A stretch of DNA of 64,000 nucleotides from Eledone cirrhosa (taxonomy: Eukaryota): positions 25,420,001-25,484,000 of the forward strand of contig OZ024760.1 of assembly GCA_964016885.1 (NCBI GenBank), in the 5' to 3' direction. Both the position numbers and the translations under genes were made by a program. The notes beneath the pieces were generated by a model, which saw nothing but the letters and a program-made list of their open reading frames with translations, had not been told where the DNA came from and ran no database searches. Positions 16,399 to 56,780 of the stretch are shown here, piece after piece. Position 1 is the stretch's first letter. The number at the start of each line of letters is the position of its first letter.

Positions 16399-16680
16399 CA
16401 AATGGGGAGAAGAATACTGCTGGTTGCACATGGATAACATGTAATAAAATAAGTCCCTCATCAGTGATTTGCCGACGATCATAGATATTTCATTGCATTA
16501 AAAATCATATACCTCACGTCGGTGCAATAATAAATAAATTAAGTTATTAGGACAATTAAAACGCGTAAAGCGAGTGAAACAAGATAACAACAAGGAGGAT
16601 AGCTAACCGTAGAAGGAAGGAAACAAGCTTCATAGTTATTCTGTTAGCATAAGCTAGGTGAATATATGAGCGCTTAGAAA
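16395..16680 (-). mobile_element. Non-coding repeat family P (permuted-hammerhead family), copy A
   Basis: Homologous to 56345-56780, 36205-36945 and 21945-22335, and abuts (TA)n. Confidence 0.8.
16453..16522 (-). ncRNA. Candidate non-circularly permuted hammerhead with k-turn, copy A
   Basis: CCGAC-GUGA-GGUAU-A-UGAUUU..GCAAU-GAA-AUAUC-UAU-GAUC-GUCGG-C-AAAUCA-CUGAUGA-GGGAC. Confidence 0.6.
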
Positions 16681-21750: not shown

Positions 21751-21944
21751 TATATATATATACGTATATGGCGATTGAAGGAAGACGTCTATGCCAGGAT
21801 CGCCTGTCTTCGTGAAACCCTTCGTAAATGAAATAATTATCTCATGTTGTCTATTACATAACTAAAAAGCTCTGTAGCCTACATAGAGCACACTCTTTTC
21901 CTTTAATTTTTCCTACGGAAATACTTTATATATATATATATATC

Positions 21945-22334
21945 GTCTGCGACTTCACAGAACTTATGTTTACCGAATTCGCAGACCAGACCCCTTCTTC
22001 CTCCCGTTAGACCTGTGCGAAATTCCTTCCTTGGTCACATTTCAACCAGGTTTGATGGTCTTTATTCTCTCGTTCACGATTCCACCGAATTTATATTCAT
22101 AGAAATCTGGGACTTGTTTCTTCTTCATCACTTTCTGTTGCTTAAACCATTTTGTTTGTTTACCCTAGCGTCCCCCTTATTTACGTGTCCCAACGACTTT
22201 TTTTAGCCGTTGCTCGCACCAACCTGAGGTATATGGCCTTTAATGCGACGAAATGCCTACGACGGTTGGAAGGCCACTGATGAGGACAAACTTTTTCATA
22301 TGTAACCCATTTGCAGCGCCGCAGCTCCATTATT

Positions 22335-22335
<1 letters not shown>
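21945..22335 (+). mobile_element. Repeat family P, copy B
   Basis: Reverse-complement homology to ~36215-36580 (e.g. caaccaggtttgatggtctttattctct). Flanked by (TA)n. Confidence 0.8.
22219..22287 (+). ncRNA. Candidate non-circularly permuted hammerhead with k-turn, copy B
   Basis: CCAAC-CUGA-GGUAU-A-UGGCCUU-UAAUGCGAC-GAA-AUGCC-UAC-GACG-GUUGG-AAGGCCA-CUGAUGA-GGAC. Confidence 0.65.
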
Positions 22336-22389
<54 letters not shown>

Positions 22390-56344: not shown

Positions 56345-56780
56345 AAAGAAGAATACTGCGTGGTTGCATATAGGTTACATATGATGAAAATAGTCCTTCG
56401 TCAGTGATTTTCCAACCATCATTGGTATTTCATCGCATTAAAAATCATATACCTCAGGTTGGCGCGAGAAATAACTAAAAAAAGTTATTGGGACCAGTAA
56501 ATCGCGTAAAGCGAGGGGGACAAGTGAACAACATAGAAGGATAAAAGCAAACCAAAGAAAGGAAATAAACAAGCAACATGGTAGTCCTGGTCAGCATAAG
56601 CTGGGTGGATTTCATGAGCGAAAGGTACAGACACGTCCAGCGTGAGTGGGATGTAAGCAAGAAGCGGCCCACTGTTAGCCAAATGGGAGAAGGGGAGAAA
56701 CAGAGAGTGAGCGAGTGGAAGTGCGAGGAAGCGGTCAGTCGAGAGAAAGTATAACTGACAGAGGGGGCGAAAGAAGGTGA
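56345..56780 (-). mobile_element. Repeat family P, copy E
   Basis: Homologous to 16395-16680. Confidence 0.8.
56393..56462 (-). ncRNA. Candidate non-circularly permuted hammerhead with k-turn, copy E (best match to model)
   Basis: CCAAC-CUGA-GGUAU-A-UGAUUUU-UAAUGCGAU-GAA-AUACC-AAU-GAUG-GUUGG-AAAAUCA-CUGACGA-AGGAC. Confidence 0.68.

Follow-up and report, generated by a model that had tools for sequence, protein, structure and literature searches.

Analysis of a 64,000-nucleotide stretch of the Eledone cirrhosa genome (contig OZ024760.1; here called the window) revealed a 5'-truncated copy of a non-coding repeat unit of about 620 to 630 bp at 21943..22340 on the forward strand. The copy is flanked by (TA)n and is 96 to 99% identical to other loci from 21943. 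It carries three blocks that follow one another, 5' to 3', as cleavage site (S), GAAA (G), and CUGAUGA (C), with a link of about 3 nt leading from stem I to stem II. All elements of this motif lie on the forward strand. The upstream strand of an extra helix, P0, which pairs with the strand after the core, occupies 22186..22190 and is followed by an upstream hairpin with a U-rich loop (22191..22212), a predicted fold with one covarying pair, the rest of the helix being out of register there. The non-bulged strand of a kink-turn (k-turn) NC helix (9n to 4n) lies at 22219..22224, positions 3n (U), 2n (G), and 1n (A) at 22225..22227, and the 3' strand of hammerhead stem III, which is also the k-turn C helix (-1n = G), at 22228..22232. 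By analogy with the hammerhead core, 22233 is H17 of an AUA triplet, and the predicted cut falls between 22233 and 22234. The stem I strand 3' of the cut site (block S; 22234..22240) leads into the 3-nt link (UAA) and the 3' side of stem II, ending in position 11.1 (22241..22249), and then into the GAAA core with the 5' strand of stem III (block G, -1b = C; 22250..22257). The 3-nt k-turn bulge L1 to L3 (UAC) at 22258..22260 is followed by 1b (G), 2b (A), 3b (C), and the bulged strand of the NC helix (4b to 9b) at 22261..22269. The stem I strand entering the core (22270..22276) is joined to the NC helix without a linker, and the CUGAUGA core, position 10.1, and the 3' strand of P0 complete the motif (block C; 22277..22288).

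The two k-turn strands of this copy read CCAAC-C-U-GA-GGUAU (22219-22232) and AUGCC-UAC-GA-C-G-GUUGG (22253-22269). They give a 5-bp C helix, a 3-nt bulge, G.A, A.G, C.U, and G-C, and then five Watson-Crick pairs. The resulting NC helix, referred to below as the return helix, has 9 pairs and runs directly into stem I. A k-turn built on stem III had been proposed at 22219..22276 in the original prediction. The layout is indeed present there and is that of a standard k-turn by sequence, but the strand quoted for it, AUACC-AAU-GA-UG-GUUGG, belongs to another copy (copy E) at 56398..56462 on the reverse strand. This is a box C/D-like variant with L3 = U, U.U, and G-C, in contrast to the copy at 22219-22269, in which L3 is C and 3b.3n is C.U. 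The compensatory changes attributed to the NC helix of copy A (CCGAC-GU-GA / GA-UC-GUCGG) were found at 16458..16522 (reverse strand), where 4b.4n is C-G. The window holds a further reverse-strand copy with U.G at 3b.3n (36261..36325) and, one unit upstream of it in head-to-tail orientation, a more decayed one (36879..36944). Both GA dinucleotides are kept in all five copies while the bulge varies (UAC, AAU in three copies, and UAU), as had been predicted. U.U, which had been listed as part of the motif, occurs in only two of the five, the others having C.U (the copy at 22219-22269) or U.G (two copies).

The hammerhead core letters CUGAnGA, GAAA, and NUH are all present, with AUA, GUA, and GUC as NUH variants. 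The order of the blocks identifies the host RNA as a hammerhead of the non-circularly permuted type SGC, for which cleavage is predicted. Stem II consists of one covarying pair, paired in 20 of 24 compared rows, and the strand after it pairs with the upstream P0 strand, unlike in known hammerheads. P0 has 4 pairs in family A, to which the sampled copies of the repeat belong; 95% of the cells are paired, and one pair shows two-sided change (16 rows). In most family D loci with enough flank, P0 reaches 10 to 12 bp and competes with a 5-bp stem II that contains a mismatch. In single family A copies, P0 showed no significance against shuffled sequences (P = 0.07 to 0.66), and the single-strand fold of most copies was no more stable than that of shuffles (z = -0.4 to -2.1). 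A scan of the window against Rfam returned no match, which is attributable to the Rfam models being unable to match the permuted order.

The S-G-C motif occurs once per 620- to 630-bp unit. Units were found head-to-tail, 5' truncated, and in inverted pairs within (TA)n, with full units head-to-tail in loci L005, L019, and L020. By the strict pattern, 15 of 100 places were in head-to-tail pairs at 500 to 700 bp and 22 were in inverted pairs. These properties suggest that the repeat is a non-autonomous Penelope-like or retrozyme-like element. A search of the genome for an autonomous partner with a Naiad reverse transcriptase (RT) motif pattern gave no match. Pairs 2.9 kb apart were considered as such a partner and rejected because the Penelope-like element in them was unrelated and ran on the opposite strand; a GIY-YIG fragment adjoining a repeat copy was assigned to another element. 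Contigs of three sequencing runs of unspecified kind yielded no information on RNA ends or expression.

The window also contains, at 35960-36220 on the reverse strand, the 3' fragment of a Penelope-like element with an RT, a Cys linker, and, at its C terminus, a GIY-YIG domain (L081-L086). It resembles Neptune, a name taken from PMC8557442. Long copies of this Neptune-like element have a frame of about 1,150 amino acids that breaks at a G run inside the nuclease, and their 3' untranslated region has a hammerhead-like core in canonical order. Hammerhead-like cores in canonical order (type I), with short or palindromic stem III, are found in other repeat families of the window as well, none of them at the Rfam threshold. 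The CTGANGA positions of these canonical-order cores are +2119, +25534, -25468, -54201, and -55482; +5964, +17546, and +42948; -42360; and -39239.

To determine the conservation of the k-turn across the genome, copies were collected with a pattern that contained the hammerhead core only, without any k-turn letter, and the reversed pattern served as a control. The core pattern gave 10,821 matches and the reversed control 2. GA stands exactly 3 nt past stem III in 10,474 of the 10,821 copies, and 9,595 have GA on both strands together with G at -1n, 5'-truncated copies being scored as misses. The GA dinucleotides and the 3-nt bulge are thus conserved genome-wide. Identity of letters among young copies is shared by descent, so covariation and recurrence in unrelated families constitute the stronger evidence. 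Covariation was assessed in 24 distinct rows, picked by hand for diversity and mutually related (18 of family A, 5 of family B, and 1 of family E). No row departs from A at 1n, G at 1b, or A at 2b; 21 rows have G and 3 have U at 2n, and the bulge and 3b.3n are variable. Two-sided changes were found at five of six NC helix pairs (96.5% paired), four of five stem III pairs (helix 100% paired), and six of seven stem I pairs. The covariation score was 0.66, compared with 0.26 for shuffled and at most 0.16 for slid alignments. Every core letter is invariant in these rows, across families whose stems differ. The lengths are likewise fixed in the k-turn families: stem III has 5 to 6 bp, the bulge 3 nt, and the return helix 9 pairs in each, followed by 7 to 8 nt to the core. 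By sequence, the motif is a standard k-turn with a 3-nt bulge, G.A and A.G pairs, and paired C and NC helices.

Whether a k-turn folds with metal ions or with protein can be read in part from its pairs. G at 3n or C at 3b permits folding in Mg2+, and Watson-Crick pairs at 3b.3n block it (McPhee et al., PMC4382518). C-G at -1b.-1n favors folding in Mg2+, and U.U combined with G-C at 4b.4n marks box C/D k-turns and impairs ion folding (Ashraf et al., PMC5689011). These positions were scored in the first 100 genome places, of which 97 could be scored and 3 were dropped because they lacked the 5' strand. Both GAs are present in 87 of the 97 copies. The 3b.3n pair is U.G in 31, C.U in 27, U.U in 13, A.A in 13, A.G in 11, and another combination in 2, with no Watson-Crick pair among these 97 family A copies. 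The ion-folding type (3b = C or 3n = G) accounts for 70 copies, and U.U or A.A for 26. C-G stands at -1b.-1n in 90. G-C at 4b.4n, which impairs ion folding somewhat, is found in 70. The full box C/D set (U.U, G-C at 4b.4n, and L3 = U) is present in 2 of the 97 sampled copies and in 695 of 10,821 genome-wide.

The label "box C/D-type" given to the motif in the original prediction therefore fits a minority subfamily only: the copy at 22219-22269, with L3 = C and C.U, lacks the set, as do most copies, and the repeat has no snoRNA context. The prediction had further suggested that cleavage may depend on a host protein; in a protein-gated ribozyme, the kink would form only with 15.5K/Snu13 bound. 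All k-turns tested fold with L7Ae (PMC5689011), U.U occurs in the 695 copies, in members of family B, and in Octopus Naiad consensi, and 4b.4n is mostly G-C in family A, all of which would suit such gating. Against it, ion-folding pairs are present in the copy at 22219-22269, in 70 of the 97 sampled copies, and in 12 of 14 family D loci. The U4-type block to folding, a Watson-Crick 3b.3n pair, is absent from the sampled family A copies, tertiary contacts can also fold k-turns (PMC5061560), and families without a k-turn exist. Since most copies have ion-folding pairs at both 3b.3n and -1b.-1n, protein dependence is not predicted for most of them, and they probably fold without protein. Protein-gated cleavage as a general property is accordingly judged highly unlikely from these pairs. 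15.5K/Snu13 could nevertheless bind and stabilize the motif, most plausibly in the U.U/G-C subfamily, without being predicted as a requirement.

The k-turn is not confined to the repeat. A metagenome scan with a pattern free of any k-turn letter returned 55 matches, of which 38 were chance matches and 17 belonged to a second S-G-C family, family D. Family D had first been found by a pattern that required the bulge-strand GA and that also gave many chance matches, and it was counted apart from family A, its MAFFT alignment being one column out of register with that of A. In the scan, GA follows after exactly 3 nt in all 17 loci. Among the 14 loci with a 5' strand, that strand has GA in 12 and AA in 2, and 3b.3n is of the ion-folding type in 12, C-G in 2, and U.U in none. 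The NC helix shows covariation at four of six pairs. In the E. cirrhosa genome itself, all 12 family D rows counted carry A at 2n. The family D motif lies about 55 nt past the stop codon of an RT open reading frame that also encodes a CCHC knuckle and a nuclease motif of REL type, and the same reading frame end was found in 8 of the 17 metagenome loci. The RT matches Pfam RVT_1 (1e-20), and its best solved relatives are R2 proteins. We take the LINE clade of this element to be HERO. In locus L197 (2900-6900), consecutive copies of the REL-type LINE are directly fused, 3' end to 5' start; a single transcript would therefore carry two motifs, as happens in Penelope tandems. A hairpin lies just upstream of the family D motif and has a self-complementary hexamer in its loop, a possible kissing loop, in eight of nine loci among those listed (L276, L216, L223, L228, L259, L261, L263, and L294). 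Inspection by eye of the supplement of PMC8557442 showed that two Octopus Naiad consensi also end in S-G-C order with the k-turn layout, in a different sequence. The layout is thus shared, at the level of sequence, by Penelope-like repeats, Octopus Naiads, and the 3' end of an RT-REL LINE.

Other families keep the permuted order and bend differently. In family C, which retains S-G-C order, stem III has 7 bp, the one-sided bulge 5 nt, and the return helix 6 bp, and GA pairs are absent from all 16 loci. At L090-L105 and L299, two S-G-C families were observed whose stem III has 7 bp and in which a 5-nt bulge replaces the k-turn. By eye, the supplement of PMC8557442 shows 13 bp, a 7-nt bulge, 9 bp, and 1 nt in coral Naiads, other bulges at squid, coral, and box-jelly Naiad ends, and C-S-G order in nematode and spider Naiad consensi (File S5). 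C-S-G is the other non-circular order and is described in PMC10085705 from only two metagenome sequences. The earlier claim that the k-turn makes the permuted topology possible is therefore too strong, given family C and the link of 0 to 44 nt in the published type SGC. From the sequences compared, the constant feature is a bend with a return helix, and the k-turn is one solution. Elsewhere, too, a k-turn can be replaced by another bend, as in the lysine riboswitch and RNase P (PMC5061560, PMC4382518).

Type SGC hammerheads, HRIMA-1 and its variants, were found in metatranscriptomes and shown to cleave by Eckert et al. (2023, PMC10085705). HRIMA-1 and the octopod motif have in common the S-G-C order, a spacing of about 3 nt from stem I to stem II, and the core letters. 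HRIMA-1 is metatranscriptomic, with a helix through which stems I and II interact and a link of 0 to 44 nt (PMC10085705), whereas the E. cirrhosa motif is genomic and multicopy and has a k-turn with a return helix and a 1-bp stem II with P0. The HRIMA-1 helix that bridges stems I and II on their free sides has no counterpart here; the strand concerned forms the NC helix, and the stem II side pairs upstream. In a few SGC cases, no nucleotide separates the far end of stem III from a place that is distant in the crystal structure, a connection that Eckert et al. left unexplained; the words "kink" and "k-turn" do not appear in the article text and supplement of PMC10085705 consulted. As a k-turn, the motif resembles Kt-7 and that of the SAM-I riboswitch in its 3-nt bulge, G.A and A.G, C-G at -1b.-1n, and ion-folding 3b.3n (PMC5061560, PMC4382518). 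In some families it resembles Kt-23, with A.A or A.U at 2b.2n, both known from non-standard k-turns (PMC5061560). It differs from all three in that the C helix is stem III of a self-cleaving-type ribozyme, with strands on opposite sides of the predicted cut. Copy E and the 695 genome copies share L3 = U, U.U, and G-C with the box C/D snoRNA k-turn (PMC5689011), but most copies do not, and the motif sits in a mobile repeat.

Among retroelements, the repeat shares (TA)n targets and tandem and inverted copies with Naiad Penelope-like elements (PMC8557442); unlike these, the repeat at 21943..22340 is non-coding. Naiads were described as having no canonical hammerheads, with a "HHR_half_core" flag (Craig et al. 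2021, PMC8557442). Non-LTR retrozymes, proposed to be Penelope derivatives, likewise consist of non-coding head-to-tail units with one hammerhead each; the text covered from that report mentions neither a permuted order nor a kink (bioRxiv 10.64898/2026.07.22.740005). In the open-access literature covered, no small self-cleaving ribozyme with a k-turn on its stem III was found, nor was the combination of SGC order and k-turn, its genomic or retroelement setting, or the altered stem II. The permutation has been described, and the k-turn is, as judged from sequence, unremarkable within its family; the combination, the retroelement setting, and the altered stem II appear to be new.

The role of the kink was addressed with a crude rod model of assumed geometry and a reach of about 25 A. 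For a monomer, the gap to be bridged was 61 A when the helix was straight, narrowing to 34 A at an angle of 90 degrees and to 17 A at the 50 degrees of a k-turn. The proposal that the kink folds the return strand back into stem I was thus borne out in part: with the join of 0 to 2 nt, the modeled monomer closes only with a bend of about 50 degrees. The k-turn on stem III of type SGC hammerheads at retroelement 3' ends is, with a little better than even confidence, an architectural hinge that closes the core within one unit. By analogy with characterized k-turns, the motif would fold with Mg2+ into the kinked shape, turning the 9-pair return helix back through about 130 degrees. The 3' strand of this helix would then enter stem I with 0 to 2 nt and complete the catalytic core in one unit, and self-cleavage after NUH, suggested by analogy with hammerheads, would split tandem transcripts into RNAs of unit length. 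In stem III, the NC helix, and P0, the two strands lie on either side of the predicted cut; the product ends would thus stay clamped, whether in a monomer or between two units, and re-ligation into unit circles would be favored. Such circles could be copied by a Penelope/Naiad or LINE enzyme.

A hinge within one unit has to be weighed against an exchange between two. The k-turn may be real and instead close a two-unit ring, in which each unit's core is completed by block C of its partner, the NC helix stacks on the partner's stem I, and two coupled cuts free a unit-length RNA from a tandem transcript. A join of 0 to 1 nt between helices usually means stacking, and the hammerhead has an angle of about 130 degrees between stems I and III. 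The short join suits coaxial stacking, which is impossible in the rod-model monomer (45 A versus 14 A). In the model, a 50-degree kink and the stem I/III angle of about 130 degrees would close a two-fold ring with any helix length, and such a ring would also fit family C, which closes barely as a monomer, and coral Naiads, which do not close at all. The motifs are often paired, as in the head-to-tail places and the family D tandem of L197, the family D upstream hairpin has the self-complementary loop in eight of nine loci among those listed, and the title of one paper says that Penelope-associated hammerheads cleave as dimers. However, most copies are solitary by the strict-pattern count, the strict lengths of 5-6/3/9/7 together with a 50-degree motif are exactly what a monomer needs, the family A upstream loop is U-rich and not self-complementary, and short published SGC constructs cleave during transcription (PMC10085705). 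The two-unit ring is thus a possibility to be taken seriously, though a rather unlikely one.

It is also conceivable, but very improbable, that the motif is no working ribozyme at all and serves as a structured 3' signal for the element's RT or for 15.5K, the hammerhead letters being kept by descent. Stem II is nearly absent, its strand being taken by P0 (10 to 12 bp in family D), genomic copies extend to either side of the predicted cut, and the window gave no Rfam match, a silence that the permuted order explains. Descent fits poorly with core letters that are all invariant across families with differing stems, with the NUH rule being kept (AUA, GUA, and GUC), and with the same core in unrelated retroelement classes. 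The most far-reaching reading would place one class of k-turn-locked scrambled hammerhead in Penelope-like repeats, Naiads, and a REL-type LINE alike. It would be the first small natural ribozyme with a k-turn, its swapped two-unit ring would excise and circularize one unit, and 15.5K would switch it on in U.U subfamilies; we regard this combination as improbable.

With the monomer hinge as the preferred reading, the motif offers a testable answer to how the chain returns from the far end of stem III almost without a linker in non-circularly permuted hammerheads. It moves the SGC permutation from environmental RNA to animal genomes, in at least three retroelement settings, and the k-turn SGC layout may explain why Naiads seemed to have no hammerheads. 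The thousands of natural variants, with a k-turn, a non-standard k-turn, or a plain bulge, could serve to test k-turn folding rules inside a predicted catalytic RNA. Older S-G-C copies with U at 2n, giving a Kt-23-like A.U at 2b.2n, were seen by eye at L199, L200, L201, L202, and L284.
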